NCBI GenBank assembly: GCA_963700155.1
Contig: OY969472.1
Coordinates: 808,690-872,689, forward strand
Direction: 5' to 3'
From: an uncultured bacterium
Lineage (GTDB): Bacteria > Patescibacteriota > Dojkabacteria > J137
Length of the DNA stretch: 64,000 nt
This document shows positions 7,994 to 38,967 of this stretch, one piece after another. Within the stretch, counting starts at the first letter, position 1, and each line of letters begins with the position of its first letter. The notes under the pieces are model-generated. The model did no database searches. It saw nothing but the letters and a program-made list of their open reading frames with translations, and was not told where the DNA came from. The translations under genes were made by a program, and so were the position numbers.

Positions 7994-8024
7994 TGTTGCA
8001 GTGTCGGATATGTTCTTATATACT
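7994..8024 (+). promoter_or_regulatory. candidate sigma70-like promoter TTGCAG-17-TATACT upstream of the 893-aa membrane protein gene
   Basis: TTGCAG at 7994-7999 and TATACT at about 8017-8022 with 17-bp spacing. This would give a very short or leaderless 5'UTR if translation starts at ATG 8034. Confidence 0.3.
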
Positions 8025-10682
8025 GAATTTGTTATGAAGATCTTCAAAAAGATAAACGAAAACAGGAGGGCTTTTTTTATAGCTCTTATTCTTATATTTA
8101 ATATTCCTTTGGCGTTTGGATTAACTAATCAGGTAAAGGCATATGTAGTTGATGGTACTTCAGACAGAATTCTTAATACACCATCTTCTCAAAACTTTTT
8201 TAATATTCTATCTCCAGATGCTGCAAAATTGGCTACTTCAACGGGTTGTGATGCTAATCTTGGAACTGGAAGCTTTTTTGATGGTGTAACAGCTCTTGAA
8301 TATGGGACTTTGGGTTACGAAGCTCAAACAGCTTTGTGTTTGAATAAAGCTGGTGATTTACAGGCTTTGAATAATTATTTTGATACTAATTCAGGTGGAG
8401 TTATGAATGCTGTAAGCAATATTCAAGCTACTATTCTAGATCAAAGACCAGCGAGTGCTGGTTATTATTTGGAGCAAAAAGTGTATGCATTACAAACTGC
8501 TGGACAAGTTTATGCTCAGGACAATACTTCTCCTGCACCATATTTCCCATCTGGAACTGGTTTCCAATTACTCCAACCTATCCAAGCTTTCTGGGGCTGG
8601 GCAGTAAATATAGTTTATGGATTTTTAATATTGATAATTATTGGTATAGCTTTTGCAATAGTATTTAGGAATAATTTGGGAGGAGCCCAAGTTGTTACCA
8701 TACAAAGTGCGATTCCAAGCATAGCTTTAGCAATGGTACTTGTTCCTTTAAGTTATGCAATTTCCGGAGTTTTTATTGATGCAATAACTGTTGGGACAAA
8801 TGTTGTACATGCTTTCTTATTAGGACCTGGTGCTCCTGGGCAGGCGGTTTATGATAACAGAGGTACAGGAACAGACGGATGTACTGATACTACAGATAAT
8901 CCTTGTGATCGTGGACTTTATGCTGATGATGATCGAGTAAACTGGTTTAACATTCAAAAAATGGTTGATATAAGTAAACCAGTTGAAAATGCAGCAGCTT
9001 CTATTCCTGATCCTTTCACCGGTGCTAAAGGGGGTTTGGTTAACAACTTTTTTGTATTTAAAATTGTAAGTACAATTCTTAACTTATTTAGTGGAAGTGA
9101 TAAACCTTCTGCATATTGGTTTGGGAAGATAATTAATCTTGTAATTGGACTTACAATGATTTGGATAGGTCTAAAGATTTTACTAAAGTTGTTTCAAAAG
9201 TATTTAATGTTGATTTTGATGCCTATTATGTCGCCATTTATTTTTGCAACTGCTGCAATTCCCGGAAATGGGACTAAAAGTATAATTGAATATGTAAAGG
9301 TTTTAGGTTCTGCTTCTCTCTTTTATATTGTGACATATGCGATGTTTTTGTTAACTATTATATTTACTAGTGAATCTTTTCAAAACCAGGTGCCAGATAT
9401 ACAGAGTGGAGCTTTTGTGCCACCATTAATGGGATTTAAAGATATTTTCCAAAATACAGGAGCACTTGGGAGTGTTCCTTTAACTCATTTTATATTTACG
9501 TTGGTTGGACTTGGAATTTATTTCTCAATTCCTAAGGTTCTGGAAGGGATAGATTCTGCACTTGGTGTGCCAACAGCAATACCGAACTTTATCTTGACAC
9601 CTATTAATTCGTTTAGAGAATCAACTAATGTTACATTTAGAGCAGTACAGCAGACAGGAAGAGCTGCCTCTGGTCTTAATCAGTTGAGACAAACCGCAGT
9701 ACCTCAAGCAAGTAGAACCATCCAAAATAGGTTAGATAGGTTAAGGGGATTAAAACCTGGTGAGATAGGAACCTGGGAATACAGAAGAAAGAATGAATTA
9801 TCTCAGCAAAGGGCAAATGCTGAAAGAGAGAAAAGAAAAGCACAAAATATTTTGGAAAATCCTAACGCTCCAGAATCAGAAAAGAATGCTGCTCGAAATA
9901 CAATAGCAGCATCAAATCGAGCTATTAGTAATGTAGATAGAGAGGTTAATAGATATGGATTTGAAGGGGTTGGATATTCTAAGGAGACACCTGAACCTGA
10001 ATTGAAAGTTGAAGTAAAAACAAAGAATGGCTTAGGGGGACCAAATATATTAGGAATAGACTCAGGTTTTATTGAATCTATGACTAGTGGCCCTGGTGGA
10101 TTTATGCTTCCATTAGATATGACAATTGAAGCGGTAGGATTTTCTATGCCAACCAATCCAATTATAACTATATATAGAACAGATCAATTATCAGCAAGTG
10201 AATATAAAAAAATAAATATTTTTGCCGAATTAACAAAAACATCGGGTAATAGCTTAGAGCTATTTGGATCCGCAGATTTCCCATGGAAAAACGATACGTC
10301 ACCTTTATTGCCTATTAACAAAGATGCTAAGGTGGAATTAACAACAGATCTTAATTCAACTAATGCCGATAAATCTTTTAACCCTGGAACTTCTGGAAAC
10401 AAATTAGTTATTCCACTTAAAGTTTTATTTAAGAACTTTGACCCAAATACAAGAAAAGCAGTTTTAGGAGAACAGAGTCCAAGTGGTAATTATATTAAAG
10501 GTCAAATTCAAAGATTTAAAGGAGGAGCGTTAACTTTTGGTGATACAATAAAAAATGGAACTTATACTACTCCAGCTTTAACTCCTGTCAATACAAACAA
10601 ATTAGTCTTTGCAATTACACTTGGTGATGGAAGAATTGCAGAAAGTAATGCAGTAAGTCCAGTAATAACCATTGCTTCTTAA
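8001..10682 (+). CDS. large polytopic membrane protein: signal peptide + ~150-aa exodomain + ~7 TM helices + ~390-aa C-terminal coiled-coil/soluble domain; architecture reminiscent of VirB6/TrbL and Gram-positive ConG/TcpH
   Basis: Cleavable-looking signal MKIFKK…PLAFG, assuming ATG 8034 is the start; the track uses GTG 8001. TM segments include AFWGWAVNIVYGFLILIIIGIAFAIVF, FGKIINLVIGLTMIWIGLKILLKLF, LMLILMPIMSPFIFATAAIPG and VLGSASLFYIVTYAMFLLTIIFT. The C-terminal region is Arg/Gln/Asn-rich helical. No catalytic motif. Confidence 0.45.
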   Translation: MSDMFLYTEFVMKIFKKINENRRAFFIALILIFNIPLAFGLTNQVKAYVVDGTSDRILNTPSSQNFFNILSPDAAKLATSTGCDANLGTGSFFDGVTALEYGTLGYEAQTALCLNKAGDLQALNNYFDTNSGGVMNAVSNIQATILDQRPASAGYYLEQKVYALQTAGQVYAQDNTSPAPYFPSGTGFQLLQPIQAFWGWAVNIVYGFLILIIIGIAFAIVFRNNLGGAQVVTIQSAIPSIALAMVLVPLSYAISGVFIDAITVGTNVVHAFLLGPGAPGQAVYDNRGTGTDGCTDTTDNPCDRGLYADDDRVNWFNIQKMVDISKPVENAAASIPDPFTGAKGGLVNNFFVFKIVSTILNLFSGSDKPSAYWFGKIINLVIGLTMIWIGLKILLKLFQKYLMLILMPIMSPFIFATAAIPGNGTKSIIEYVKVLGSASLFYIVTYAMFLLTIIFTSESFQNQVPDIQSGAFVPPLMGFKDIFQNTGALGSVPLTHFIFTLVGLGIYFSIPKVLEGIDSALGVPTAIPNFILTPINSFRESTNVTFRAVQQTGRAASGLNQLRQTAVPQASRTIQNRLDRLRGLKPGEIGTWEYRRKNELSQQRANAEREKRKAQNILENPNAPESEKNAARNTIAASNRAISNVDREVNRYGFEGVGYSKETPEPELKVEVKTKNGLGGPNILGIDSGFIESMTSGPGGFMLPLDMTIEAVGFSMPTNPIITIYRTDQLSASEYKKINIFAELTKTSGNSLELFGSADFPWKNDTSPLLPINKDAKVELTTDLNSTNADKSFNPGTSGNKLVIPLKVLFKNFDPNTRKAVLGEQSPSGNYIKGQIQRFKGGALTFGDTIKNGTYTTPALTPVNTNKLVFAITLGDGRIAESNAVSPVITIAS

Positions 10683-10700: not shown

Positions 10701-11156
10701 ATGTCTGATAAAGATACTACTGAGAAAACAAAATATATTGAACCTAGAGGATTAGGTAAGATTAATCCTATTGAAGCTTTTCGGGAAAAAGGTCCGGCGG
10801 ATAAGTTTCTCGACTTCATGGCGACTAAAGTTGGAAAACCTGGTGATAAGGAAGGAGATGCTTTTGTTAATGTATGGGGTGGAATAATGAAATCTCCAGA
10901 GAAACTACTGAGACTTGGTATAAAGGGAATTGGTTTAGCTGCATATCCTTTATATGCATTTGAATTAGCAAAAAGTGCAGTTGATAGAAGTATTTCAGAA
11001 GGTAAAGCAAGAGAATCAGATAGAGTAAAATTGATTGAAGAAGAAGCGAAACGTTTAAAAGATAGGATGGAAAGTGAACAAAGTTATCAAGAGTTTCTTG
11101 GTAATTCAGATGATTTTGATACCCTTTTGCCTGCTCAAAAGAGAGGCATTCTCTGA
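10701..11156 (+). CDS. hypothetical protein (151 aa) with one amphipathic/hydrophobic segment
   Basis: ORF 19 nt after the upstream stop. Segment LRLGIKGIGLAAYPLYAFELA. No motif. Confidence 0.5.
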   Translation: MSDKDTTEKTKYIEPRGLGKINPIEAFREKGPADKFLDFMATKVGKPGDKEGDAFVNVWGGIMKSPEKLLRLGIKGIGLAAYPLYAFELAKSAVDRSISEGKARESDRVKLIEEEAKRLKDRMESEQSYQEFLGNSDDFDTLLPAQKRGIL

Positions 11157-13161: not shown

Positions 13162-13164
13162 ACT

Positions 13165-13362
13165 ATGGATGATCAACAAAAATTAATACAATCTAAGTTA
13201 GTTTTTCAGAAAATAATTGATAGATTTAGAGAGGAACTACTAGATAAAAAAGATAAAGAAGGAAATTTGCTATACTCTCCTGATGAAATAAATCAAATGA
13301 TTGATGATTTAGTTGAAGCTTTTAATAAAAAGAAAATTAATCTTGTTAAAAAACAAACATGA
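13165..13362 (+). CDS. small hypothetical protein (65 aa)
   Basis: Begins 4 nt after the upstream stop and ends with an ATGA overlap into the 1307-aa gene. Charged and helical. Confidence 0.4.
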   Translation: MDDQQKLIQSKLVFQKIIDRFREELLDKKDKEGNLLYSPDEINQMIDDLVEAFNKKKINLVKKQT

Positions 13363-16300
13363 GTAATCTTAATGTTGATTATTTAAGTATGCATGAGAAA
13401 GCTCCTAACTCTGGAGTTTATGAAGTTTTATTAGGTGTCCGATATCCATTCAATCCAGCTACAGCTTTAGTTCTCCAGGATGTTGCAAAAGAATATGGTT
13501 ACGAAGTAACAGTAAACACAGGTACTGGAGAAATTAAAATTGAGAATTTAAATGCTGAAAATGGAATGACTATTAAGCAACAAATAGAAAATTTACAACG
13601 TGGAGTTGCTAATAATGTAAATAGTGCTCAGAATGTAAATTTAAATTTTACTACTCCAGTAACTTTTGCTACGGGTAGTGTTAATGCTCCAACTTCATAT
13701 AAAGATACTTTGTGGGAACGTTTTACTAGAGATAAAGATAAAGTTAGAGCAGAAAACAGGTTACAGCAATTACTTTTAAATACTAGTGATGCAGATATCA
13801 ACCATATAATTCAAGGAGGGATTGATAGGGTAGCTTTTCTAGATATTATGAATGCTGCTGAGCTTACACCAGTTGATGCAGATAATATTATAAAGTTCAT
13901 AGTATTACTTCAATCCAATCCTGATTATAAATTTGTAAAAAGTCCACTTAGAAAAAAAGTCTTAGATATAATATTAAAATTCGCTTACACAGAATTATTT
14001 CAATCTTCAGCGAAAAATTATTTCCAACAAATTATATCTCAACTAGGTACTCCACCAAATCTTGACTATAGAAAGCTAGATATTTCATCAATTAATATGC
14101 TTTTTGAACCAGTTGGATTAAGTTTTTATACTTTATCAGAAGAACAAAGATCATTTTTCGCAGATCTTTTAAGAAATATAAAATCACAACCTAAAACACC
14201 ACTAAGTCCTGAAGTTGATAAATTACTGGAAATTTTAGCTATGCCTGTAGGTATAAGTATAATTGAAACAGGTTCACTACCAAATGAAAGTATTGCACAT
14301 ATAATTAAAACTTTAAATTATAGTCCAGACGCTGAAGATGAACTAAGTAATCTGTTAAAGATAGAGAAAATCGATCCTAAATTCAGAAGCATATATAGAA
14401 ATCTCAGAATACTTTCTTTATTAGATTTATCCCCCGGAATGCTTGAAACATTAATATTCAAAGAAGATTTATCACCTGAAGGTAAAGATCAAATTGTTAT
14501 TGATATAATTGATAGAATAAATGAGAAAATTCCTGAATATCTATATAGGTCTCAATCGAGACCAAGAGATAGTCTTTTATATGGAGAAACTTTAGGTTTT
14601 CTTCAATATTTGTATCAAGATCCTTCAGGGAATCCAGGGATAACTCCAATTAGAGAATCATTTTTGAACGAATTAGCTAAGAAGTTTAATGCTAATCCTT
14701 TTGATGAGTTTCAAAAAGGTATGTTTGAAGTAATTCTGGAAATAATGAATTCTGGATTAGTGGTTGGGTATAAGAAAGAAAATGCTGATGAAAGAAGACA
14801 GGATAGAGTTGGAGAAGTTCTTAAACAAACTAAATCTCCAAAAACAAAATTAACACTTCCTTCGTATTCTAGAAGTAATTTTAAACCAACTTTACAAGTT
14901 AGTATCACTGGACTACCTGAGGATTATGAAGCTATTTCATTAAACTCTAAGGGAACTATCCCTGAGCTTGTCAATTTATACATTCAAAATCCTGAAGAAT
15001 TTGCTACAAATGCTAATTATGAGGATATTAGATTTAACATTCTTAAAATTATTGAATTTTTACAGTTGGAAGGAATATATGACTATATTGTTGATATACT
15101 TCAGAATTCAAGTGATGAGGATAATGCATATATAAGTCTTGTTGAGACCTTCTATAATACAGAACCTGTTAATAACCAAAGAATATATCCATATATTGAA
15201 AATTTAACAAATATTTTTAAGACATGTTTCAAATCTGGATTTGCTGATACTGATGAAGCATCAAAATATATTTCAGCAAGATTTATTGTAGATATGTTAG
15301 CAAAGCGTACTAAGAAAGATGAAGCTGCATCTAGGTTAGAAACTCCAGCTAATAAGTATGGGATAACAAAATTGTTAAACATACCTTCAGATTTACAAGG
15401 GATAATTCAAGAAGTATCAGATGCACAAGGTAATATAGATCTAACTAAACTTACTAGAATTCAACGGGAAATATTTATAAAAAGAATTAGAACTTTGGAA
15501 TTACAAAGAGGTATTATAAAGATTTTAGAAGATAAAAAAGATTCTCTAACTCCTGATGATATTGATAATCTCATTGATCAAGCTACACGAGCGTTTATTT
15601 CTAATGAAGGACTTGATGGAAAATCAGTTTTTGATATTAATGAGTCTAGTATTAATTTTAAAAAGAACTTGAAAGTCTTTATTGATGGGTTGTTGAATCC
15701 ACCAGATATAACTACAGGGTTAGGTATTAATTTTGAAAGTGAAAAGGAAAAAACTTTAGATACATTAGAGACAATGTACATTGTAATAGGAAAGAAAGGG
15801 AAACTTTTTGAGCTTAGACAAGGTCAAATTTATGATGATCTTGATAAAGTTGAAGAAGATATTAAGGTATTTGTTGAGAATTATAGAGAAGATATCCTTA
15901 ATAAAAATATTGAAATGGAACAAGGTAGGGATCTTGCTAATAATATGGAAGATTCGATAAATCACCTAAAGAATAAACTTAAAAGTCACTATGAGGAAAA
16001 TTATAAAGATGCCCCAAGTAGTGACTTTAGAGATACCTTTAGAAAAAATAGTCGGGTAAAAAATATAAAAAATACATACTTTAAAAGCTTCTTAAATGGT
16101 GTGAATATTACAACTAAAGAAGAATATTCGAATTATTTAGCTTTTGTTGATGTTATTGGAAATTTAATTGACTTAGAAAGTGAAAGAGATTATGAAATTT
16201 TATTTTATCTCTTAGTTGTTCCTGTCGGTATTTTTACGAGTACAGATTATAAATTAAGGTTTAAAGACAAAAAGACGAAGAAGGGTAATAGTTATCATGA

Positions 16301-17282
16301 AGAATTGAAGGGTTATAAACCAGCACCTCCGAGATCAGGTTATAGCGAAAAGGAGATTAAGAATTTAGCCAATCATCTATTAAAAGCTCAACTTAGAGCT
16401 GCAGTTGTTATTTATGAAGAACAAATTGCCCAGCAAAGAGAAGCTTCTAGACTTAATGAAAGAGATAATGAGAAGAAAGATAATAAAAAAGAATCTCATT
16501 CGAATCTTCAAAATACCCCAGAAACAATTAATATTAATGGTACTGAGGTAAAATCTCAACAAAATAAACGTTCGGTAAAAAAGTTAGCGCAATCTATTAT
16601 TAGAAATAGAGGTAAAATTGGAGCTGTGGCTGGAGAGGTTGCAGGAGGTGCATTTGTCTTAGGAATTGCTTCAACTGGAAATATTCCTGGAGCTCTAATC
16701 GCAGGAGAACTTTTCTTCCTCCCGGTAAGTTCAGCAAGAATTTTGCAGATAGGAGCCGACATGAGAAAAGATGATAGAAAAAAATATATTGAAACAATAA
16801 ATGCTAATGTAGAACTACTTAGACAGGATCTCCAGGGATTACCTGAAGTTGTTAGAAATCATACTCAAAATCTTATTAATGCAAAATTTGCTGAAAAATA
16901 TGTAGAAGAATCAAGAAAGAATTTAAAAAATATGAGAGAAAATATTTATCCTAAGATTCAATCTAAGTTAGATAAATCAAAAGCAAGTGAAATTCAAGAA
17001 ATAAATTTAAACTTAGTACCGAAAGCCACGAGAGTTATAGATAAATCTATGTCAGAAATCATGTCATTATTAAGAGATAATGCTTCAGGTAAGCCAATAG
17101 ATCCAGCAAAACTTGAAAAGAGAATTGTTGATTTATTAAGAAAAATAAATGAAGCTATGTTTGAGTTAACAACAATGCTGGAAAATTTAATAAATGATGT
17201 TAGATTAAGAAAGAAAAACTGGGGCGAGAATTGGTACAAAGAACTAAGAATTTTAGAAGAGTCTTATGGAAGTGCTGCTTAA
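13359..17282 (+). CDS. giant hypothetical protein (1307 aa), helical/repetitive, C-terminal glycine-zipper membrane hairpin followed by a coiled-coil
   Basis: No P-loop or enzymatic motif. Segment IGAVAGEVAGGAFVLGIASTGNIPGALIAGELFFLPV (GxxxG-rich). Downstream heptad-like region (…LQGLPEVVRNHTQNLINAKFAEKYVEESRKNLKNMREN…). Confidence 0.55.
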   Translation: MSNLNVDYLSMHEKAPNSGVYEVLLGVRYPFNPATALVLQDVAKEYGYEVTVNTGTGEIKIENLNAENGMTIKQQIENLQRGVANNVNSAQNVNLNFTTPVTFATGSVNAPTSYKDTLWERFTRDKDKVRAENRLQQLLLNTSDADINHIIQGGIDRVAFLDIMNAAELTPVDADNIIKFIVLLQSNPDYKFVKSPLRKKVLDIILKFAYTELFQSSAKNYFQQIISQLGTPPNLDYRKLDISSINMLFEPVGLSFYTLSEEQRSFFADLLRNIKSQPKTPLSPEVDKLLEILAMPVGISIIETGSLPNESIAHIIKTLNYSPDAEDELSNLLKIEKIDPKFRSIYRNLRILSLLDLSPGMLETLIFKEDLSPEGKDQIVIDIIDRINEKIPEYLYRSQSRPRDSLLYGETLGFLQYLYQDPSGNPGITPIRESFLNELAKKFNANPFDEFQKGMFEVILEIMNSGLVVGYKKENADERRQDRVGEVLKQTKSPKTKLTLPSYSRSNFKPTLQVSITGLPEDYEAISLNSKGTIPELVNLYIQNPEEFATNANYEDIRFNILKIIEFLQLEGIYDYIVDILQNSSDEDNAYISLVETFYNTEPVNNQRIYPYIENLTNIFKTCFKSGFADTDEASKYISARFIVDMLAKRTKKDEAASRLETPANKYGITKLLNIPSDLQGIIQEVSDAQGNIDLTKLTRIQREIFIKRIRTLELQRGIIKILEDKKDSLTPDDIDNLIDQATRAFISNEGLDGKSVFDINESSINFKKNLKVFIDGLLNPPDITTGLGINFESEKEKTLDTLETMYIVIGKKGKLFELRQGQIYDDLDKVEEDIKVFVENYREDILNKNIEMEQGRDLANNMEDSINHLKNKLKSHYEENYKDAPSSDFRDTFRKNSRVKNIKNTYFKSFLNGVNITTKEEYSNYLAFVDVIGNLIDLESERDYEILFYLLVVPVGIFTSTDYKLRFKDKKTKKGNSYHEELKGYKPAPPRSGYSEKEIKNLANHLLKAQLRAAVVIYEEQIAQQREASRLNERDNEKKDNKKESHSNLQNTPETININGTEVKSQQNKRSVKKLAQSIIRNRGKIGAVAGEVAGGAFVLGIASTGNIPGALIAGELFFLPVSSARILQIGADMRKDDRKKYIETINANVELLRQDLQGLPEVVRNHTQNLINAKFAEKYVEESRKNLKNMRENIYPKIQSKLDKSKASEIQEINLNLVPKATRVIDKSMSEIMSLLRDNASGKPIDPAKLEKRIVDLLRKINEAMFELTTMLENLINDVRLRKKNWGENWYKELRILEESYGSAA

Positions 17283-17298
17283 ATTTTAAAATAAAAAA

Positions 17299-17727
17299 AT
17301 GTATTTAGATGAAGCAATATTAAGAATATTATATACAATTCCAGTTGAGGTGGATATTACCTCGGAAAAAAAGACATATCTTATGACTTGTTTGCAGGCT
17401 GGTATTGAGGCATTGATTGTTTTTAAGCTTTCTAATCCAAGCGAGTATTCAGAAGAAAGTTTCAATGAAAAAGCAAATCTTTTAAATTCAGAATTAGAAA
17501 AAGAAGATCCTAATATTGATTTATTAATGGGCTTTATGCGAAATCTTCAAGAGAATAAAAATTTTAATTCATTATACGAAAGTTATTTAACTGAAATTAA
17601 TAAAGATATTTTTGAAAAAGCCTTTCAGAGACAGCCTCAACTTCAAGATGAAATAGTACAATATAGTAAAGGTGTTAGAGATAAAGCAATCAAAGAATAT
17701 ATTGAAACATTTGTTGATGTAGAATAA
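17299..17727 (+). CDS. hypothetical protein (142 aa)
   Basis: ORF 17 nt after the 1307-aa gene. Acidic and helical. Confidence 0.45.
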   Translation: MYLDEAILRILYTIPVEVDITSEKKTYLMTCLQAGIEALIVFKLSNPSEYSEESFNEKANLLNSELEKEDPNIDLLMGFMRNLQENKNFNSLYESYLTEINKDIFEKAFQRQPQLQDEIVQYSKGVRDKAIKEYIETFVDVE

Positions 17728-17748
17728 TCACAGTTAAAGCTTTACAAC

Positions 17749-18081
17749 ATGGATTCTAACGAAAATTCAACACAATCATTAGCTCAAAAAACACAATCTG
17801 CAATTAAAACTGCAAAAAAGATTAAGACCATTTGGTTTATTTTAACTTCAGTTGGACCTCTTTTGATTATAGTAATTATTTTTGGATTCCTTTTTTTAAA
17901 CATAAAAGCAAATCCTGTTGATAATGTTGATATACTTTATCAATGCCAAATTGCAGGTCAGCCTTTAGATAATACATGTATAAAAAACCTTAAAGAAAAA
18001 TTTAGAGATCAAATTTCTTCAGATGATCCAGATATTCAGGGAGGATCAGCAAATCCCCACCCTACTTATCCTCGAACTTAA
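17749..18081 (+). CDS. small single-pass membrane protein (110 aa)
   Basis: TM segment IWFILTSVGPLLIIVIIFGFLFL. Last gene of the + operon. Its stop abuts the stop of the convergent gene. Confidence 0.45.
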   Translation: MDSNENSTQSLAQKTQSAIKTAKKIKTIWFILTSVGPLLIIVIIFGFLFLNIKANPVDNVDILYQCQIAGQPLDNTCIKNLKEKFRDQISSDDPDIQGGSANPHPTYPRT

Positions 18082-20379
18082 TTAAGTATCTGTTGGAGTT
18101 GGTTCAACGAATTCAGCATCCTCTGCTCCATTATCATTTTTTACTCCTTGGAAAGGCTGAGGCGAAGATGGGGCTTGGGGTTCAGGTTGTTGAGGTTGGA
18201 TAGGCGCTTTTGATTGAGTTGCTTCTGTCGCCTCAGCCTGCAAACTTGGTTGTTCAGTAGTATTTTCTAAAGGTTGGGGTTGGTTTTCTACAACATTACT
18301 CTGCCCTGTTTCTCCAGGAGTTTCATTAAGATTTTGATCTACCACAGGCCTAGGTTGAAGCTGTTGTTCAGTAATATTATCAGGTCGTACCTCTTGGAAA
18401 GGTGTAATCTCATTATTATTTTCTTTTGGTTCTAATCTTTCTTGTTTAGGTTCACCTCCCATAACAACATTATTGTTTTGAGTCCCAGTTTCAATTGAAC
18501 TTGGTCCCGGTTGAATTGGTTGAGGTTGAATTACTTCTTCAGGTGGTTGTAAAGTTGGTGTTTCAGGAACTGGCTGACCCTTTCCTTGCCAGTAATTTTG
18601 TAATGATTGTTCAATTTCCTCTGTTGTTGGTGCTTGATAATTTTCACTTACTGTTGGCAGATTCTGAGGCGGTTCGCTCGGTGAATATGGTTGTAATGGT
18701 GGCAATGGCTCTGTAGAAACGGGTTGAAATTGTCCAAAATCCTGCGAACCGACTCCATTAAAACCTTGTATCCCATTCTCTTCATTTTTCTTTTTATTCT
18801 TCTTCCAAATTGTATAAAGAACCCAAGGTACAATTAATAAGATTAAAAATAAACCACAAACAAGGAATAATATTATCAAACTGTTTTTAGGAATTTCTCT
18901 TCCTAAGATCACAACATTTTCTTGTGTTAAGGTTTGTTCCTGTGGTTGTGTATTTATTGTAAATGTCCAGTTTATTGAAGCAACTTTTCCATTAGAATCT
19001 TTATAACTTACATTTACTGAATGTTTGCCATCTTCTAAAGGTTTGCTTATATCACAAGTGAAGCCAGACTCAGTTACTTTGCACTGTTTTGTTATATCAA
19101 CATCGTTAAGTAAAATTTTAATACTGCTTGTTACAACTTTCGAATCACTTGAAGGTACAAATTCTCCGGATAGTTGAGGTGATGATACATTTATTTCTGA
19201 TGTACTATCTGGTTTAAGATTTATTATTAATGGTTCACTTTGTGTTTCTTGGGTATTATTTTGAATCAAGAATGAATCCGAGACTCTATTAACTTCTGAA
19301 TTCTGTTTATCTGTAACTGTTATTCTTAAATAATAAATATCATCCGAGATTCTTGAAACGTCCCAAGTATAAGAATTGAATGTAAGTTCCTCTTCTTTAC
19401 TTAATGTTGCGATGGTTTTCCAATTTTTATCTGTATCTTTTGAATATTCTAAAACAATTTTTGCTACTCCATCTGGTTCATTAATATTCCACTTAATATC
19501 ATTACTAGAACCTTTCAATATTGAGTTATATACAGGATAAAGGATATCAATCTTTGTAGGTGTATTGTTTGTTTCCGGTTGTTCTGGAGTACTTGGTTCC
19601 TCAGGTGTTTGAGGTGTTTCTGGATTTGTGCTTGGAGGTGGCGTTGTTGGCTGATCTTTTACAATACTTAATGTAAATTCCTGTGTCGCACTTCCACTTA
19701 TTCCATCATCTACAGCAACTTTTATTTTATAATTTGCTTGATTTACTCCGGTAGGTAATGTTTTTGAATTGCTATTAGTTTTTATTAACCCAGTCTGTGA
19801 ATTTATCGATATAAAATTCGTTCCATAAACTAAGCTATAAGTTAAATGATCATTATCAGGATCATATGCTGTAACTTGATATTGCCATGAATCAGATTCG
19901 TGAATAGTTAAATTTGAAGGATTTGATGTAATTGTTGGGAGTGAATTATGATTTACAATTTTTACTATTCTTGAATTACATGCAGAATAAGAAGAACTCC
20001 CATTTTTCATAGCTGCACAAATCTGTAAGCAATAATTCCCATCAGGCAAATTTGTTGAACTCTGGGTATTATTAGTATTCCAACTTAATGAATTATCCTG
20101 ATTTTTATTTGACGTTCCACTCAAATTTGCATTGATGGTTCCATAATTTACATTCTCACAACTTGCGGCATCAAATAATTTCGCTGTGTATTGAATAGTT
20201 GATTGATCGTCATCCCACATTCTCCAAGTAATATTTATTGCCCCGCTTACTTTTTGATTTGCAGCTGGAGACGTAACATAAAAAATATCGTCAGGATCAC
20301 CTATCTCATAAGCTTTTATAATATTGAACCCGAGAAAGCTGATTAAAATTGTTAAAACTATTATTAATATTTTTTTCAT
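18082..20379 (-). CDS. type-I membrane surface protein: signal peptide, Ig-like/cadherin-like domains, Pro/Thr linker, single TM, ~250-aa cytoplasmic Pro/Gln-rich tail
   Basis: Signal MKKILIIVLTILISFLGFNIIKA. Motif …DNDHLTYSLVYGTNFISINSQTGLIK… (putative Ig / dystroglycan-type cadherin-like). TM IILFLVCGLFLILLIVPWVLYTIW followed by KKNKKKNEE and P/Q-rich low-complexity sequence to the C-terminus. Confidence 0.6.
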   Translation of the reverse strand: MKKILIIVLTILISFLGFNIIKAYEIGDPDDIFYVTSPAANQKVSGAINITWRMWDDDQSTIQYTAKLFDAASCENVNYGTINANLSGTSNKNQDNSLSWNTNNTQSSTNLPDGNYCLQICAAMKNGSSSYSACNSRIVKIVNHNSLPTITSNPSNLTIHESDSWQYQVTAYDPDNDHLTYSLVYGTNFISINSQTGLIKTNSNSKTLPTGVNQANYKIKVAVDDGISGSATQEFTLSIVKDQPTTPPPSTNPETPQTPEEPSTPEQPETNNTPTKIDILYPVYNSILKGSSNDIKWNINEPDGVAKIVLEYSKDTDKNWKTIATLSKEEELTFNSYTWDVSRISDDIYYLRITVTDKQNSEVNRVSDSFLIQNNTQETQSEPLIINLKPDSTSEINVSSPQLSGEFVPSSDSKVVTSSIKILLNDVDITKQCKVTESGFTCDISKPLEDGKHSVNVSYKDSNGKVASINWTFTINTQPQEQTLTQENVVILGREIPKNSLIILFLVCGLFLILLIVPWVLYTIWKKNKKKNEENGIQGFNGVGSQDFGQFQPVSTEPLPPLQPYSPSEPPQNLPTVSENYQAPTTEEIEQSLQNYWQGKGQPVPETPTLQPPEEVIQPQPIQPGPSSIETGTQNNNVVMGGEPKQERLEPKENNNEITPFQEVRPDNITEQQLQPRPVVDQNLNETPGETGQSNVVENQPQPLENTTEQPSLQAEATEATQSKAPIQPQQPEPQAPSSPQPFQGVKNDNGAEDAEFVEPTPTDT

Positions 20380-21959
20380 AAAACTCCTTTATTGCTAATT
20401 AATGTTTTTACATTTGTTTCTAATGTTGTCAATTGTCCTTGTGATACTGAATTCCCCTCAATTACTTTATTAAATGCCTCTTTTATATCCATTCCTTTTA
20501 CCATGTACCAAGTTTTAAGATTAGGAAGCGAATCATTATATATTTTTAGATATTGGTCATCAGATAATTCAGTTGCCATATCTTTTCTTGGATATAAAAT
20601 ACCAAAATATCCTTCATTTGTTTTGATATTGTCACTAAGTTCTTTTAATTTATCAGATTGAGTAATCCACTGTAGGAACTTCCAGGCTTCTGTTGAATTA
20701 GGTCTGTTTAATGCAACCATGTTTCCCCAATACTCAGGCCAGTTGATTACTGCTTGATCTTGTCCTTGTAGTTGAGGCAATTGGGCAACACCAATATTCA
20801 AGTTTAATCCATATTGCTCATTGTAATAAAGGATTTCTCTTAATCTATAGCTAGGTACAATAATCATTGCAACGTTTCCTTCTAAGAATGCTGCTGAATC
20901 ATTTTTTATATCTCTGCTCCATGTTCCTGTAGAGCTATTGGCAAAGTCCTTGTAGAATTGGAATGCTGAAACGGAATCTGTGTCTTCTGCAAATGTGGGG
21001 ACATCTTTGCTATCTGTAACACTAACTCCATTTTGGAATAATAATACATTCAATACATCAAATGAGTAAGAAACATTTGAAGATAATCCTCCTGCGAATC
21101 CTGCAACTTTTATTGTGTTTTTTTCTTTTGTTGTTAAGTTTTGAGCTAGACTTTTAAAGCTTGGCCAATCAGTTGGGACGTTTAGCACTGCTTTTGAAGC
21201 AAGAATATCTTTATTATAAACAACGGCTAATGTATCCAGCCAAAGGGGAACACCATTTATTGTGCCATTATGTGCAAAATCTTGTCCAACAACTTCATAA
21301 AAAGTATTGTTAAATGTTTCAGAATCATAAGATGTACTTGATTTGACATATCTCTCATAATCTCCAGCCCATGTACTACTTACCGAAAAAATATCAGGTA
21401 TTTGAACGGGATCGTTGGCTTTTAATATTCGGTCAAGTTCTGTTTTATAAGTTAAAGCTGCATCATCAGATGCTGTGTCAGCGGGAATCTTATTAGCATA
21501 TTCAATTGTTACATTTGGGTTCTCAGTATTATATTCATCCAATAAAGGCTGAACTTCAGAAGGATCCATAAATGCTCCCCACCATTGCAGGACTACTTTT
21601 TCTGATGATGTATTATTTTGATTCCCGCTGTTGTTACTGAAAAGTAAATTTATAACAAAAATCAAAACTATTATGCCAACGATCCCGATTATTATATATG
21701 GTAAGAATTTCCGTATATCTAATTTGTTTTTTTCAGGCTCGGAATTATTGACTAATGAGTTAGGGTTAAAGTTTGTTGGTGGCGGTGGGTTATAAGTCTG
21801 TTCAGGAATAATTGGTTGTGGCTGAACTGGTTGAAATTGTTGTGCAGTTTGGAATTGCTGATCTGTTGGCTGATACTGCTGTGGAGGTAAATCCACAGGT
21901 TGTGGTTCTACCAGATTTTGTGGTTGTTGTACGTTGTTAAAATTATAATTATCACTCAT
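20376..21959 (-). CDS. membrane-anchored extracellular solute-binding protein (family 1 SBP-like) with ~75-aa cytoplasmic Pro/Gln-rich N-terminal extension
   Basis: N-terminus …PQPVDLPPQQYQPTDQQFQTAQQFQPVQPQP…. TM FLPYIIIGIVGIIVLIFVINLLF, then VVLQWWGAFMDPSE…ENPNVTIEYANK…, typical of sugar-type ABC substrate-binding proteins. ATGA overlap with the downstream gene. Confidence 0.6.
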   Translation of the reverse strand: MSDNYNFNNVQQPQNLVEPQPVDLPPQQYQPTDQQFQTAQQFQPVQPQPIIPEQTYNPPPPTNFNPNSLVNNSEPEKNKLDIRKFLPYIIIGIVGIIVLIFVINLLFSNNSGNQNNTSSEKVVLQWWGAFMDPSEVQPLLDEYNTENPNVTIEYANKIPADTASDDAALTYKTELDRILKANDPVQIPDIFSVSSTWAGDYERYVKSSTSYDSETFNNTFYEVVGQDFAHNGTINGVPLWLDTLAVVYNKDILASKAVLNVPTDWPSFKSLAQNLTTKEKNTIKVAGFAGGLSSNVSYSFDVLNVLLFQNGVSVTDSKDVPTFAEDTDSVSAFQFYKDFANSSTGTWSRDIKNDSAAFLEGNVAMIIVPSYRLREILYYNEQYGLNLNIGVAQLPQLQGQDQAVINWPEYWGNMVALNRPNSTEAWKFLQWITQSDKLKELSDNIKTNEGYFGILYPRKDMATELSDDQYLKIYNDSLPNLKTWYMVKGMDIKEAFNKVIEGNSVSQGQLTTLETNVKTLISNKGVL

Positions 21960-21993: not shown

Positions 21994-23487
21994 TTAAACA
22001 CTTCCTGATGGTAGGATATCTAAAACGTTTACTCCAAGTATTCTTAAGATTAATACGCTAAATATTAAGACTGCAACTCCAGTTAGTGTAGCGATTAGCC
22101 TTTCTCTTGCTTTTTTTACACCTTCTTCATCACCTCTTTGATATTGAATTCCTACAAGAATTAATTCGAGCAATGCCACTCCACCGACAACTCCTAATGC
22201 AATTCTAATCAACCCAGTAATTATTCCTAATGGACTTGGGTCTAAGCAGCCGATTGCTGTTGGAATGCCACCACTAGCTCTACATTGAGCAATAAAGTCA
22301 GCATTTCCCTTATCAAGATTTTGACTAGCATTTATATATGCTAATGTATCGGCTACACTGTTATTAATTAAATCTGTTCTGTTGATAAAATTTGTACTAC
22401 CAGTGTCGCAAGTTATTAATTGTTGTTTATTTTCAGGATTAGTATTTTCATCTTCAATAAACATAGCTTCATTGTTAGTAAAACATTTCTGGCAACTTAG
22501 AGTATTACTGTCTAATGCTTCAGTACTTATAATAAAATAATCCTTTCCACTAGAAGTAATTTTTGTGTATGGTACAAACTGATTATCTGCAACATTATTT
22601 ACAACTGCACATCCTTTTGAAGCACATTTGAAATCAGAACCTGACATAGTCCCATCAAGTGATACATTATTAGCCGGGTATGATTGTCCCAATCCTAAAC
22701 CTAGTTGAGGTTTAATTATTCCCCCATCTGAAAAACTAAATTCAGATAAATCTGTAGTGTATCCACTTCCAGTACTTTTAATTCCAACAATTATATTACC
22801 CTGGTTTACACTATTAAGTGCTTCTTCAAAAGAGGAAGTATGTGAAGCTTTTTGAGAGGTATTAGGTATAATTACATTTCCTGATTCATCTTGACAACCT
22901 CCAGAAGTTGGATTTGGATCCCACTTTGTTGGGTTAAGACCAGAACCCACTCGGCAGCAGACACCATTAATATAAGCCTCTGCAGAACTTTCCTGTGCTA
23001 CATTTACAAATTTAAAATCTGTTGGACAGCACCCAGTTGAATATCCTACGAAAGTAGTGATTTTATGAGGTGCTTCTTGTGCAGTCCATCCTTGTGGACA
23101 TGCCCTTGGTATTATTTGCTGGTCGTTATTTGAGCCAATAGAATTTAAATTTTGATTAGGAAAGTTTTTAAGTTCGCTGTTAGTTAAATATCTGACTGTG
23201 AAATTTGTATACTCTTGATTTACACATACTTTGTTAGCATTATCTCCATATGTATCAGATATACTATTAATAAAGCTTTCTTGATTTAAATCTAAATATT
23301 GTGAAGCATTATCAGCTAAATTTAATAGGTTATATTTTCCAGCGGGACAATCTCCATAATTTCTGACGCATTGACTTCCAAACCCATTTAGCTGTGCTTC
23401 GGCTTTGCCAGAAAATCTAGTTGCTCCAACAATAAATAGCACACTTACTATTATCAACAATATAATACTAACTTTTCCTTTAAGCAT
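21994..23487 (-). CDS. secreted Cys-rich protein (497 aa) with C-terminal double-TM hairpin (pilin/VirB2-like topology)
   Basis: Signal MLKGKVSIILLIIVSVLFIVGA. About 20 Cys in the exodomain. C-terminus …GLIRIALGVVGGVALLELILVGIQYQRGDEEG…LIATLTGVAVLIFSVLILRILGV (two hydrophobic helices separated by a short charged loop). Confidence 0.5.
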   Translation of the reverse strand: MLKGKVSIILLIIVSVLFIVGATRFSGKAEAQLNGFGSQCVRNYGDCPAGKYNLLNLADNASQYLDLNQESFINSISDTYGDNANKVCVNQEYTNFTVRYLTNSELKNFPNQNLNSIGSNNDQQIIPRACPQGWTAQEAPHKITTFVGYSTGCCPTDFKFVNVAQESSAEAYINGVCCRVGSGLNPTKWDPNPTSGGCQDESGNVIIPNTSQKASHTSSFEEALNSVNQGNIIVGIKSTGSGYTTDLSEFSFSDGGIIKPQLGLGLGQSYPANNVSLDGTMSGSDFKCASKGCAVVNNVADNQFVPYTKITSSGKDYFIISTEALDSNTLSCQKCFTNNEAMFIEDENTNPENKQQLITCDTGSTNFINRTDLINNSVADTLAYINASQNLDKGNADFIAQCRASGGIPTAIGCLDPSPLGIITGLIRIALGVVGGVALLELILVGIQYQRGDEEGVKKARERLIATLTGVAVLIFSVLILRILGVNVLDILPSGSV

Positions 23488-23508: not shown

Positions 23509-24714
23509 TTATTCTACCCTTTTTATAGCTTCAATATAATATGTGAACTCAGCCTGCCTGCCATCATTCATCTCAGCTCTACCCTTAAAGATATATATAG
23601 GATAAACATATCCTGTCCAATCTTTAGGTTCATAATATCCTAAAAGAGTTTTACTTCTATCCGCAACAAACTTTCTTACCGATACTGTATCAGGTTGATC
23701 CCCAAAATAATTTCCACTCTGAGGAATTAATGAAACAAGTGAACCTTGTCCCTGTTGAATCTTTGTCCAAGCTTCTTCAGGTGTAATTATTAAATATGAA
23801 CCTCGTAAAAGACCATCTGCACTATTACTATCAATACTATACTCGTAATCTGTAAAGTTCAATTCAAAGACATCTTTTTTATAATCACTCAATTTATTTG
23901 AAGCTATCACATGTATTTCTCCAATTCTTGGATCTGCTGTATAAACATATGCATCAATTGGTTTTGGAATCAAAGCTTTATTATCTGTTTGAGGAAGCTC
24001 ATCAGTTGGCTTTAAATCTGCAAAAGATAGATTCCTAAATATATTTATTACAACATAGTCGGCTTCAGCAGGATTGTCATTGTTAAAGAAAGTTCCATTA
24101 TTATATTTAGCAAATCTTGCATCAACCAGACCAGTATCAAAACCTGTGGTATCAAATCCAAGGCTTTTTATTAAACTTAATGCAGATCTTTCATAAGGAT
24201 CAATAGTATTATTTAGTGTCTTGATTCTTTTTGCTTCAATATTATTTGTATAATCAGTCGTCATACTCCAAGTCAAATTCTCCTTATCGTACTTAATAAC
24301 TTTAGTCCCACTAGCTGTTTCCCAGGTGAACAAATTATTATCAGTTGTATAAACAAGCGGATTGAATCCAAGTTTATTTACACTAGTTTGTGCAGCTTCA
24401 AATGATCCTAATTTTTCTCTTGGTTTATCTATTTTATATACATATGCAACATCTGGAAGTACAGTAAATACACTTTCCAGTGAGTATGATGGTGTAACTG
24501 AAGAGTCCAAAGAGATACCTGGAATATTAGGACGAGAAATGTCACCAAAAGCTCTATCAGGATTCATATAATATCTCGCAGTGTTTGTTGGAGTTAAAAT
24601 TGCAGCCTGTTGGGCATTTGAAATAGTTTCGATAACTAAAACTAAGAGTGTAAATATAAGAAAGCCAAAAAGAACTTTTCTCCCAGTTTTTGAAGCGTCA
24701 TAAAGTGTAGCCAT
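23509..24714 (-). CDS. N-terminally membrane-anchored extracellular protein (401 aa); first gene of the surface operon
   Basis: Anchor VLFGFLIFTLLVLVIETI followed by a Ser/Thr/Asn-rich exodomain. No motif. Confidence 0.5.
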   Translation of the reverse strand: MATLYDASKTGRKVLFGFLIFTLLVLVIETISNAQQAAILTPTNTARYYMNPDRAFGDISRPNIPGISLDSSVTPSYSLESVFTVLPDVAYVYKIDKPREKLGSFEAAQTSVNKLGFNPLVYTTDNNLFTWETASGTKVIKYDKENLTWSMTTDYTNNIEAKRIKTLNNTIDPYERSALSLIKSLGFDTTGFDTGLVDARFAKYNNGTFFNNDNPAEADYVVINIFRNLSFADLKPTDELPQTDNKALIPKPIDAYVYTADPRIGEIHVIASNKLSDYKKDVFELNFTDYEYSIDSNSADGLLRGSYLIITPEEAWTKIQQGQGSLVSLIPQSGNYFGDQPDTVSVRKFVADRSKTLLGYYEPKDWTGYVYPIYIFKGRAEMNDGRQAEFTYYIEAIKRVE

Positions 24715-38200: not shown

Positions 38201-38967
38201 CCTCCAGAAAGCGATTCATTTTCTCCACGGATATTAGAAAAGTTTATTCCACTTCCGGATCCATATTTAAAAATTCTTGCTTCAGTTGTAACCATATCAA
38301 AAATACCACCTGGGTTTACCAAATCATCGTTTATTGAAAGAATAAAGCATGCATGTGGCTGCCCCCTAGTATAGGCATCTTCAGATTGTTTAACTTCTTT
38401 TGTTTCAGGATCAACATACCAGTGACCTTGAGGTTTCCCAGTAATATTATATGCATGAGAAAGACCAGTGTTAAACCATTGTGGGCTGTTTGGGGCAGCC
38501 ATTTGGGTCATAAGCATATAAGATACTTCATCTTCAAATGATTGTCCATCTTCTTTTGAATCAAAGTAATTATATTTTTCACCCCACCATCTCCAAGTCG
38601 AGGCAAGCCTATTTACAGCCTGTTTTACTGAAGTTTCTGCTCCTAAAATAGGCTTGCCGTTCTTATCTTTTTTTAATTCGCCTTTTTTATTGTATTGAGG
38701 AACTCCTTGTTTTCTGAAGTATTTTTGAGCAATTATATCTGTTGCAATCTGGCTCCACTCTTTTGGAATTTCAATATTATTCATCTCGAATACGACTGAT
38801 CCATCAGGATTAGTAATTTTAGAAGTTCTATATTCAAATTCTACATCTTTATAAATATCTTCACCTGTCTTTGTGAACATTCTTTTTATTTTCAATCCCT
38901 TCTTCCCAATATTAGTTTTAATTCTTTTATCAATATCTTTTTTTGTAACTATAGGATCTGTGGCCAT
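35263..38967 (-). CDS. nrdJ: ribonucleoside-triphosphate/diphosphate reductase, class II (adenosylcobalamin-dependent), long form with C-terminal Cys-rich zinc ribbon
   Basis: Class II signature …[37 protein letters not shown]…, active-site [10 protein letters not shown], C-terminal CSNCGG…CLVCTDCG. 1234 aa with no intein signatures. Confidence 0.85.
   Translation of the reverse strand: [1234 protein letters not shown]

Follow-up and report, generated by a model that had tools for sequence, protein, structure and literature searches.

A conserved gene pair of Dojkabacteria encodes a solute-binding protein and a cadherin-like surface protein with predicted disordered, motif-bearing cytoplasmic tails

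A disordered tether with a docking peptide is an established design in bacterial proteins: SSB combines a Pro/Gln/Gly-rich linker with an acidic tip (DDDIPF), FtsZ combines a C-terminal linker with a C-terminal peptide, and ZipA and FtsK contain P/Q-rich cytoplasmic linkers. The bitopic proteins FtsN and PilN bind actin-like ATPases (FtsA and PilM, respectively) through a short peptide at their cytoplasmic N-terminus. The adhesin pairs of Mycoplasma, i.e. of wall-less bacteria with a reduced genome, possess a single transmembrane helix each and a Pro-rich cytoplasmic tail that is thought to be linked to an internal structure (P1/P40-P90 in M. pneumoniae, P140/P110 in M. genitalium), and in Rv1747, an ATP-binding cassette (ABC) transporter of M. 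tuberculosis, clustering is driven by a disordered cytoplasmic linker with phospho-Thr sites. The candidate phyla radiation (CPR, or Patescibacteria) constitutes a large and mostly uncultured share of bacterial diversity, many members of which are believed to be attached to other cells, and to our knowledge it is essentially unknown how these organisms link events at their surface to the cell interior. Here we describe two overlapping genes from an uncultured member of the Dojkabacteria within the CPR, located on a stretch of 64,000 nucleotides (the window; positions 808,690 to 872,689 of contig OY969472.1, assembly GCA_963700155.1). One encodes a solute-binding protein (SBP) and the other, referred to as gene A, a cadherin-like surface protein. 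A first-pass annotation of the window had remarked that both proteins project a P/Q-rich tail into the cytoplasm and had proposed a common docking partner or a signalling role; the observation is confirmed by our analysis and its interpretation is supported in part.

Both tails consist of a variable, low-complexity and predicted disordered linker whose free end carries a short conserved peptide of acidic, aromatic and Pro residues, that is, the design found in SSB, FtsZ and ZipA. The linkers of those proteins join cytoplasmic modules, whereas the tethers described here hang from extracytoplasmic proteins via a single transmembrane helix. The SBP is like FtsN and PilN in being a single-pass protein with its N-terminus inside, a conserved peptide at the extreme cytoplasmic N-terminus and the remainder at work outside, but the tails of FtsN and PilN are basic and ~10-30 amino acids (aa) long, whereas those of the SBP family are acidic, Tyr-rich, 20-230 aa long and attached to an SBP. 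The arrangement of two adjacent genes for surface proteins with one transmembrane helix and a cytoplasmic tail each recalls the Mycoplasma adhesins, from which the pair differs in that no relationship in sequence or fold was detected, the structural matches of gene A being cadherin-like and not P1/P110-like, and in that one partner is an SBP. With Rv1747 the pair shares a disordered, Thr-containing cytoplasmic region (many orthologous tails carry poly-Thr tracts); Rv1747, however, has FHA domains and a known kinase, neither of which was identified here. Compared to the family-1 (CUT1-type) SBPs of monoderm bacteria and archaea (TMBP, CbpB of C. thermocellum, MalE), the SBP has the same two-lobed fold and belongs to the same sequence family, and like the anchored members it uses an N-terminal anchor to keep its domain on the outside of the membrane. 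It departs from these in the motif-bearing cytoplasmic extension of 20-230 aa that precedes the anchor, in the lack of adjacent permease and ATPase genes at the loci examined, and in the invariable pairing, in Dojkabacteria, with a cadherin-like protein. Gene A in turn resembles the classical and desmosomal cadherins, which also have a signal peptide, tandem beta-sandwiches, one transmembrane helix and a disordered, acidic, motif-bearing tail. Unlike in animal cadherins there is no Pfam cadherin match, the structural TM-scores are low and the tail motifs bear no relation to the sequences that bind catenins, and the comparison is best read as a functional analogy only. No description of this architecture was found in the literature on tailed SBPs, on disordered CPR surface proteins or on Dojkabacteria. 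The pair and its motif-bearing tails are real and conserved and, as far as we could determine, seemingly undescribed; the principle of a disordered tether with docking peptides is already known, and it is the function in this setting that we infer.

The features of the pair are the following (window coordinates).

20376..21959, minus strand: SBP gene, 527 aa, membrane-anchored family-1 (oligosaccharide-type) solute-binding protein (open reading frame (ORF), PDB and NCBIfam matches, orthologues, AlphaFold2 (AF2) and Foldseek)
21732..21959, minus strand: N-terminal tail of the SBP, aa 1-76, predicted disordered and cytoplasmic (composition, predicted local distance difference test (pLDDT), orthologues)
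21891..21959, minus strand: tip of the SBP tail, aa 1-23, MSDNYNFNN...QNLVEPQPVD (local version of the Tyr/aromatic N-terminal motif)
21639..21734, minus strand: EKNKLDIRK (basic cluster) and, directly after it, the signal-anchor transmembrane helix of 23 aa, together aa 76-107 (hydropathy, AF2, positive-inside statistics)
20379..21602, minus strand: predicted extracytoplasmic two-lobed domain of the SBP, aa 120-527 (pLDDT >90, Foldseek, invariant columns)
18082..20379, minus strand: gene A, type-I membrane protein of 765 aa, its exodomain comprising four Ig/cadherin-like beta-sandwiches, with a long tail (ORF, AF2, Foldseek, orthologues)
20308..20379, minus strand: signal peptide of gene A, aa 1-24 (hydropathy and sequence)
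18889..20307, minus strand: exodomain of gene A (AF2 secondary structure, pLDDT, Foldseek, conserved Cys/Trp columns)
18784..18879, minus strand: transmembrane helix of gene A, aa 501-525, with stop-transfer cluster KKNKKKN, 526-532 (hydropathy, AF2, charge statistics)
18085..18807, minus strand: tail of gene A, aa 525-765, net acidic and predicted disordered (composition, AF2, 127 orthologous tails)
18577..18648, minus strand: motifs SENYQAPTTEE (a weak form of NYYxPE) and EEIEQSLQNYWQGKG in the gene A tail (AF2 helix, family motif counts)
18085..18120, minus strand: extreme C-terminal motif of gene A, DAEFVEPTPTDT (family consensus [DE]x[FY][VIFY]EP[TKE]x[TIK][DNST])

The ORF coordinates reproduce the earlier reading that the SBP gene overlaps gene A by 4 bp (ATGA). 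Because of this overlap, and because the Shine-Dalgarno sequence of gene A (AAAGGAG) lies within the 3' end of the SBP gene, the two genes are probably translationally coupled. A scan of species-representative genomes yielded 565 relatives of the SBP, the closest of which come from ~30 loci whose homologues are named Candidatus Dojkabacteria. The order SBP gene then gene A, on the same strand, is kept in nearly all of these loci, with a gap of -4 to ~+50 bp (95, 211 and 547 bp in three of them). When all ORFs from ~34 related Dojkabacteria loci were clustered into neighbour families, the SBP was represented in 34 loci and gene A in 33, followed by p401 (29; see below for the neighbours), an ATP-dependent DNA ligase (23) and p893 (17). 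The gene A family comprises more than 100 clusters at 50% identity. Both tails accompany the pair across the Dojkabacteria.

Both low-complexity regions are predicted to be cytoplasmic, because the SBP has a single helix (aa 85-107 by hydropathy, 86-107 in the AF2 model) and gene A a signal peptide and one further helix (498-530 in the AF2 model). The distribution of basic residues agrees with the earlier placement of the P/Q-rich regions inside the cell: the 15 residues on the N-side of the SBP helix hold the larger number of K+R in 67 of 72 orthologues and never the smaller, and for gene A it is the C-side flank that has more K+R (21/26). The disorder expected for the tails is likewise predicted, with a pLDDT below 50 over most of both (for the SBP, most of residues 1-81) and above 85-90 in the folded domains.

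The tail of gene A counts 240 aa (P 16%, Q 14%, E 12%, N 9%, T 8%; 36 D/E vs 13 K/R), and the P/Q-rich extension before the helix of the family-1 SBP-like protein 76 aa (Q 21%, P 21%, N 14%, and no K/R at all), close to the ~250 and ~75 aa given before. Among the 55 window ORFs of at least 100 aa, a P+Q content above 0.30 in any 40-aa stretch was found solely in the two proteins of the pair (0.60 and 0.42), the others reaching at most 0.28. The G+C content of the tail-coding DNA is raised (0.38-0.44 for gene A and ~0.40 for the SBP, against a window value of ~30%), which matches what Pro and Gln codons would give. Tandem Repeats Finder (TRF) identified trivial repeats only in this DNA (19-29 bp), and the idea that the tails are recent DNA-repeat expansions was rejected on this ground. 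A promoter/terminator scan was uninformative, the counts in this AT-rich DNA being equal to those in shuffles.

Across orthologues the tails vary in length and can not be aligned. All 127 distinct gene A tails measure 50-392 aa (median 171), whereas a tail of 20-230 aa is present in nearly all close SBP orthologues (42-62% identity) and absent in ~10 of the 91 relatives, all more distant ones, which use a lipoprotein or short signal instead. Composition varies as well: other genomes show poly-Thr tracts or Ser/Asn/Glu-rich tails, and the pooled tails are T/P/S/E/N-rich, the pair of the window being the most P/Q-rich (0.39 and 0.30). P/Q richness is therefore a trait of this lineage, not one of the family. 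The notion of a conserved P/Q feature thus holds for the presence of both tails and fails for their composition. By the same token, the concern that the tails might be strain-specific low-complexity sequence without conservation is justified with respect to composition and not with respect to the short motifs described below, which are conserved far above shuffles.

In the SBP family the conserved elements are Tyr-rich and N-terminal (e.g. PDYYEQPxYL). One of four motif types, namely [YF]YEQP (as in MPDYYEQPAYLKE), [QE]PYT[VI]E, AYTTQTYGY or the YNF type, is present within the first 45 residues of 74 out of 93 distinct tails (shuffles: less than one), and Tyr makes up 8% of the pooled tails, at a net charge of -6.7 per 100 aa. 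The tip of the window SBP has related counterparts in P0002, P0010, P0012 and P0036. In gene A, where the pooled tails have a net charge of -10 per 100 aa and contain 4.6% Tyr, one conserved element is at the extreme C-terminus: [FYLM]xEP occurs in the last 20 aa of 33 of 52 tails where 0.45 are expected (maximum of four in 1000 shuffles) and of 60 of 127 tails in the larger set, examples of other tips with the consensus being DYVEPTETN, EYFEPTPKD and SYYEPEATS. Further inward, NYYxP(E) is found near the membrane in 50 of 127 tails (7.3 in shuffles), PxWL in 42 (0.5) and a helical-motif class, F..YEDYL.A / DDYYSYVNP / YPELYG, in 48 (0.9). The only helix that AF2 predicts in the tail of gene A, at residues 586-598 (window form SLQNYWQG), belongs with the latter, of which EEIEQSLQNYWQGKG is the local form. 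The codons beneath the conserved motif residues vary synonymously between genomes, and selection therefore acts on the peptide and not on a signal at the nucleotide level.

The motifs are specific to the pair. Among the window ORFs of at least 60 aa gene A is the sole match to its C-terminal motif, and in the window and ~600 kb of related loci no other protein was found to carry tail motifs, except for DYYQPEAY in a globular segment of a 411-aa housekeeping-type protein. A sorting signal of the LPXTG/sortase, PEP-CTERM or GlyGly-CTERM type was considered for the gene A C-terminus and rejected, since the order of elements is reversed: the transmembrane helix (501-525) and the basic cluster (526-532) come first, followed by the 230-aa tail and then [FY]xEP.

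The gene A family has several alternative tip motifs, with [FY]GYGxK[VI]D, PY.DYGLA and DPYGFG in other clades. In clades with a tail-less SBP gene A ends in [FY]GYGxK[VI]D[NE], PY.DYGLA or DDGSDPYGFG[DE]Y (loci L012, L024, L027 and L029; proteins P0137, P0151-P0154, P0165, P0181 and P0219-P0240), usually preceded by the PxWL motif and the F..YEDYL.A helix. As a separate observation, the segment DDYYSYVNP / DYYKYINP in the gene A tails of L006, L008, L010, L014, L023 and L026 contains Y[VI]NP. In an Esx effector that host Actinobacteria direct against Saccharibacteria, a conserved GYVNP/GYNVP motif in the disordered C-terminus is reported to be required (2026 preprint, PMC13622651). The likeness concerns a motif of 4-5 residues and is probably a coincidence; it would be of interest if host effectors mimicked the tail motifs of epibionts.

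How far the two tails resemble each other is a more subtle matter. They are not homologous duplicates (BLASTP E = 0.15), and a single motif identical in both was rejected: scans of the SBP tails with the gene A C-terminal profile and of the gene A tails with the SBP YYEQP profile are significant in aggregate only (z ~3.3 and 4.5, higher than in any shuffle), the individual matches being weak. In the window the resemblance is seen between QNLVEPQPVD of the SBP and AEFVEPTPTD of gene A (whose extreme C-terminus carries EFVEPTPTDT), the SBP tip segment scoring 5.7 bits against the gene A profile. The earlier claim of similar tails on both proteins is accurate, then, in that both are P/Q-rich here, and does not extend to homology or to a strong likeness of motifs. 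A link at the level of genomes is suggested by the distribution of the C-terminal EP motif of gene A, which is present in 16 of 22 genomes in which the SBP has a tail and in none of the eight in which it has not, gene A having a GYG-type end or no recognised motif in the latter (Fisher p = 5e-4); the statistic is not corrected for phylogeny and hence suggestive only. The Thr content of both tails correlates within genomes (rho = 0.54, p = 0.009), and for the P+Q content no significant within-genome correlation was found. A common partner of the two proteins, or direct contact between their tails, is plausible.

The folded part of the SBP is a member of family 1 (SBP_bac_1 PF01547 / SBP_bac_8 PF13416). 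Pfam returned no SBP match for the window protein itself, even at E-values up to 10. A phmmer search of the PDB matched family-1 SBPs (E = 4e-9 to 1e-5), with 4g68 (E = 3.9e-9) and the trehalose/maltose-binding protein 1eu8 (E = 5e-9) at the top; NCBIfam MalE was matched with E = 3.8e-9 at a score below the curated cut-off, and most of the 91 orthologues, among them those at 42-62% identity, are annotated with PF13416/PF01547. The AF2 model, built on 33 orthologues, has a pLDDT above 90 over residues 122-527 and shows the two-lobed alpha/beta fold of periplasmic binding proteins. Nearly all of the top 50 Foldseek matches in the PDB are oligosaccharide SBPs (E 1e-22 to 1e-18; TM-score by target 0.7-0.8), the closest structures being the cellodextrin-binding CbpB, a mannooligosaccharide SBP, the trehalose/maltose-binding TMBP and MalE. 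The alignment of the 33 orthologues contains 30 invariant columns, many of which are Trp or Tyr, consistent with a conserved sugar site. With a single N-terminal helix and the K/R cluster on its N-side, the domain is predicted to lie outside the cytoplasmic membrane.

The exodomain of gene A is predicted to form tandem beta-sandwiches, at ~aa 30-141, 148-240, 276-372 and 384-475, with a Pro/Thr linker (241-275) in between the second and the third. Foldseek relates the model to the ectodomains of desmocollin-2, N-cadherin and protocadherin (E 1e-11 to 1e-8), the TM-scores being low (0.1-0.2) because only similarity at the level of the repeat is detected. Pfam gave sub-threshold matches to Kre9_KNH and Big_13 only and none to a cadherin profile; a DPDND stretch is visible in domain 2, and two orthologues have been named 'cadherin repeat domain-containing protein' by NCBI. 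The description of gene A as a 765-aa type-I protein with an Ig/cadherin-like exodomain and a P/Q/E/T-rich tail is thereby upheld.

Taken together, these data suggest that the tails serve as flexible tethers in the cytoplasm and offer docking peptides to one or more partner proteins there, a reading to which we assign a probability of about 0.5. The conserved, presumably coupled cassette would put two proteins on the cell surface, an oligosaccharide-type SBP with a signal anchor at its N-terminus and a type-I protein with four cadherin/Ig-like domains. Both would extend a disordered, net-acidic tail into the cytoplasm. Most of each tail would be a fast-evolving linker of variable length, P/Q-rich here and Thr/Ser/Asn/Glu-rich elsewhere, and the functional parts would be the short conserved peptides, mostly at the tips distal to the membrane (the SBP N-terminus and the gene A C-terminus, together with the amphipathic helix, NYYxP and PxWL of gene A). 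By docking to cytoplasmic protein(s), the tethered peptides could localise, cluster or couple a glycan-binding/adhesion module to an intracellular machine. Binding of the motifs to a partner, a joint action of the two proteins and the sharing of one partner are what we infer from these observations.

Several points weigh against this reading. Topology and disorder rest on prediction, and the conservation of the motifs could serve biogenesis or turnover instead of docking. The window itself has atypical tails, its SBP being without the common YYEQP motif and the NYYxP of its gene A degenerate. The two window tails are not homologous, the best single matches in the cross-scans do not exceed 8 bits, and the co-occurrence of gene A motif and SBP tail is confounded by phylogeny, as the tail-less SBPs may form one clade. 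Finally, the neighbourhood of the pair in the ~34 loci contains no conserved candidate for a cytoplasmic partner: the recurrent soluble neighbours are all housekeeping proteins (alanyl-tRNA synthetase, ATP-dependent DNA ligase, UvrC, methyltransferase), and a recurrent 642-aa soluble protein that was considered as a partner proved to be the alanyl-tRNA synthetase. The shared docking partner of the first-pass annotation was thus not identified there and is putative.

Part of the evidence can be accommodated without a third protein. If Tyr and Phe residues acted as stickers within polar, Pro-rich spacers, the tails could associate with each other, through weak multivalent contacts or as a kind of condensate, and thereby cluster both proteins in patches of the membrane, which would fit their Tyr content (8% for the SBP and 4.6% for gene A) in a background of T/P/S/Q/N, the presence of several aromatic motifs per gene A tail and the co-variation of Thr within genomes; the co-occurrence of the gene A C-terminal motif with the SBP tail likewise fits direct tail-to-tail binding. 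Such self-association nevertheless appears unlikely, as the net charge of both tails is negative (-10 per 100 aa for gene A and -6.7 for the SBP), which disfavours simple coacervation, as the window tails are comparatively Tyr-poor, and as the conserved elements are position-specific tip peptides, which goes beyond composition. The fold of the SBP and its closest structures, which are bona fide SBPs of oligosaccharide ABC importers, and the invariant Trp/Tyr-rich columns that fit a conserved binding site would fit ordinary uptake, by a CUT1-type importer encoded elsewhere, to whose cytoplasmic face or ATPase the SBP tail would dock, so as to keep the anchored SBP close by, and for which the cadherin-like protein would be an accessory factor in glycan capture or adhesion; anchored SBPs are, moreover, the norm in monoderm bacteria. 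We consider this quite improbable. It leaves the tail and the motifs of the cadherin-like protein unexplained, and genes for an ABC importer permease or ATPase, which accompany the SBP of a CUT1-type importer, were found beside the SBP gene neither in the window and loci L001/L002 nor in the ~34 Dojkabacteria loci and nine distant CPR loci, in accordance with the earlier remark that none is adjacent. Importer membership is thus not supported by gene context. Oligosaccharide catabolism is made less likely by the report that neither glycolysis nor the pentose-phosphate pathway is complete in Dojkabacteria (PMC5113843).

Alternatively, the tails could have no signalling role at all and be tolerated low-complexity expansions or entropic spacers, the terminal peptides serving biogenesis or turnover (e.g. 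membrane targeting/insertion, translation initiation context or protease recognition). The variability in length and composition, the ~10 of 91 SBP relatives that manage without a tail, and the 46 of 127 gene A tails that fall outside the four C-terminal regex classes all agree with this. We hold it to be improbable in view of the four or five distinct motifs that are kept across a family of more than 100 clusters: many of the 46 unclassified tails carry the related PY.DYGLA motif, the synonymous variation excludes a nucleotide-level signal, DNA repeats that would hint at recent slippage are absent, and an N-terminal degron or targeting role would not account for why the SBP tail and the C-terminal motif of gene A occur together. 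That the low-complexity regions would instead be extracellular Pro/Thr-rich stalks, possibly glycosylated, is suggested by how common such linkers are outside the cell (gene A itself has one at aa 241-275), yet it is very hard to reconcile with the data and highly improbable: the SBP has a single hydrophobic segment and an external N-tail would leave its domain in the cytoplasm, the signal peptide and one further helix of gene A put the C-tail inside, and basic residues (K/R) cluster next to the tail in 67 of 72 SBP and 21 of 26 gene A orthologues.

If the tails do act as tethers with docking peptides, the design of SSB, FtsZ and ZipA would extend to extracytoplasmic solute-binding and adhesion proteins, and an SBP with no ABC transporter encoded beside it could transmit information or positioning through the membrane. 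For a phylum-wide surface pair in which conservation on the cytoplasmic side is confined to short peptides within disordered tails, the defined peptides of 8-15 residues offer testable handles with which an intracellular partner could be fished out. The reported lack of complete sugar pathways, together with that of adjacent permease genes, makes a non-transport role of the SBP worth considering, and a possible, albeit doubtful, elaboration is that gene A and the tailed SBP form a transmembrane receptor that couples the binding of glycans at the cell surface to a cytoplasmic machine. The SBP may in that case be a ligand sensor and not a transporter subunit, the glycan may come from a host cell or the environment of an episymbiotic CPR bacterium, and the Tyr-based short linear motifs on the tails may address a cytoskeletal, divisome, secretion or kinase machine. 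Such a receptor would be a bacterial counterpart of the tails of eukaryotic adhesion receptors, and its principle (a Pro-rich N-tail on an orphan SBP) may have been reused in the CPR beside VanW L,D-transpeptidases.

The last point derives from distant SBP relatives of the CPR, at 26-32% identity, from Pacebacteria and other lineages. A Pro-rich N-tail of 54-217 aa precedes a single transmembrane helix in 10 of 46 loci; for L036-L042, L047, L070, L073 and L076 (SBP gene at ~10 kb each) the range of tail lengths is 36-217 aa. The tips are again conserved, as M(N/S)xPLPKP and MDPxNSAxQ..SPFVSQSFDAPPT. These loci are without gene A; the SBP gene is instead divergent next to the gene of a VanW + PG_binding_4 (+G5) protein. 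Since tailed SBPs also occur there with other neighbours, the tailed, apparently orphan SBP seems from its gene context to be a recurrent CPR theme, with neighbours that differ by lineage. VanW-domain proteins of the VanW + PG_binding_4 architecture were recently demonstrated to be L,D-transpeptidases (PMC10980060), and the adjacency to genes of this type may point to a function of this SBP family in connection with the cell wall.

The neighbours of the pair in the window are the following.

23509..24714, minus strand: p401, 401-aa bitopic surface protein and conserved neighbour (29/34 related loci, usually divergent from the SBP gene)
21994..23487, minus strand: p497, Cys-rich secreted protein with two C-terminal transmembrane helices (homologues in ~12-20 related loci)
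8001..10682, plus strand: p893, 893-aa protein with six transmembrane helices and a C-terminal soluble part of ~430 aa (recurs in 17 related loci)
10701-18081, plus strand: block of five genes of 151, 695, 1307, 142 and 110 aa (ORFs between the p893 gene and gene A)

In the window p401, p497, the SBP and gene A together make up a cluster of four genes for surface proteins. In most genomes p401 and p497 are divergent from the SBP gene; here they share its strand, and a local inversion is implied. The product of p401 has weak similarity to desmoglein-2 (E = 0.0085); a VanW-type L,D-transpeptidase was considered and rejected for it (1% probability by hhalign against CPR VanW, and no Pfam match). 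That of p497 has a weak, sub-threshold match to T4SS_pilin (E = 0.0019).

The products of the 8-18 kb operon, proposed at first as possible partners of the tails, do not qualify. For the five genes at 10701-18081, no homologue was found in the ~34 related loci and all Pfam matches are sub-threshold; they are therefore not a conserved partner, and from its distribution the block looks like an insertion specific to this lineage. Only p893 is recurrent, and it has no Pfam or PDB sequence match. The last gene of the block ends at 18081 and the convergent gene A at 18082, so that there are no intergenic bases between them and no room for a terminator.

Two further genes of the window stand apart from the pair. 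A 556-aa protein (42969-44639, plus strand) has a single Thy1 (ThyX) match over residues 52-259; it is about twice the usual length of ThyX and ~300 of its residues are without match. A class II ribonucleotide reductase of 1234 aa (35263-38967, minus strand) has its barrel domain matched in two stretches and, in addition, a TSCPD domain and a weak TACO1/YebC_N match (residues 304-367); its length and the split match suggest that it carries an insertion, possibly an intein.

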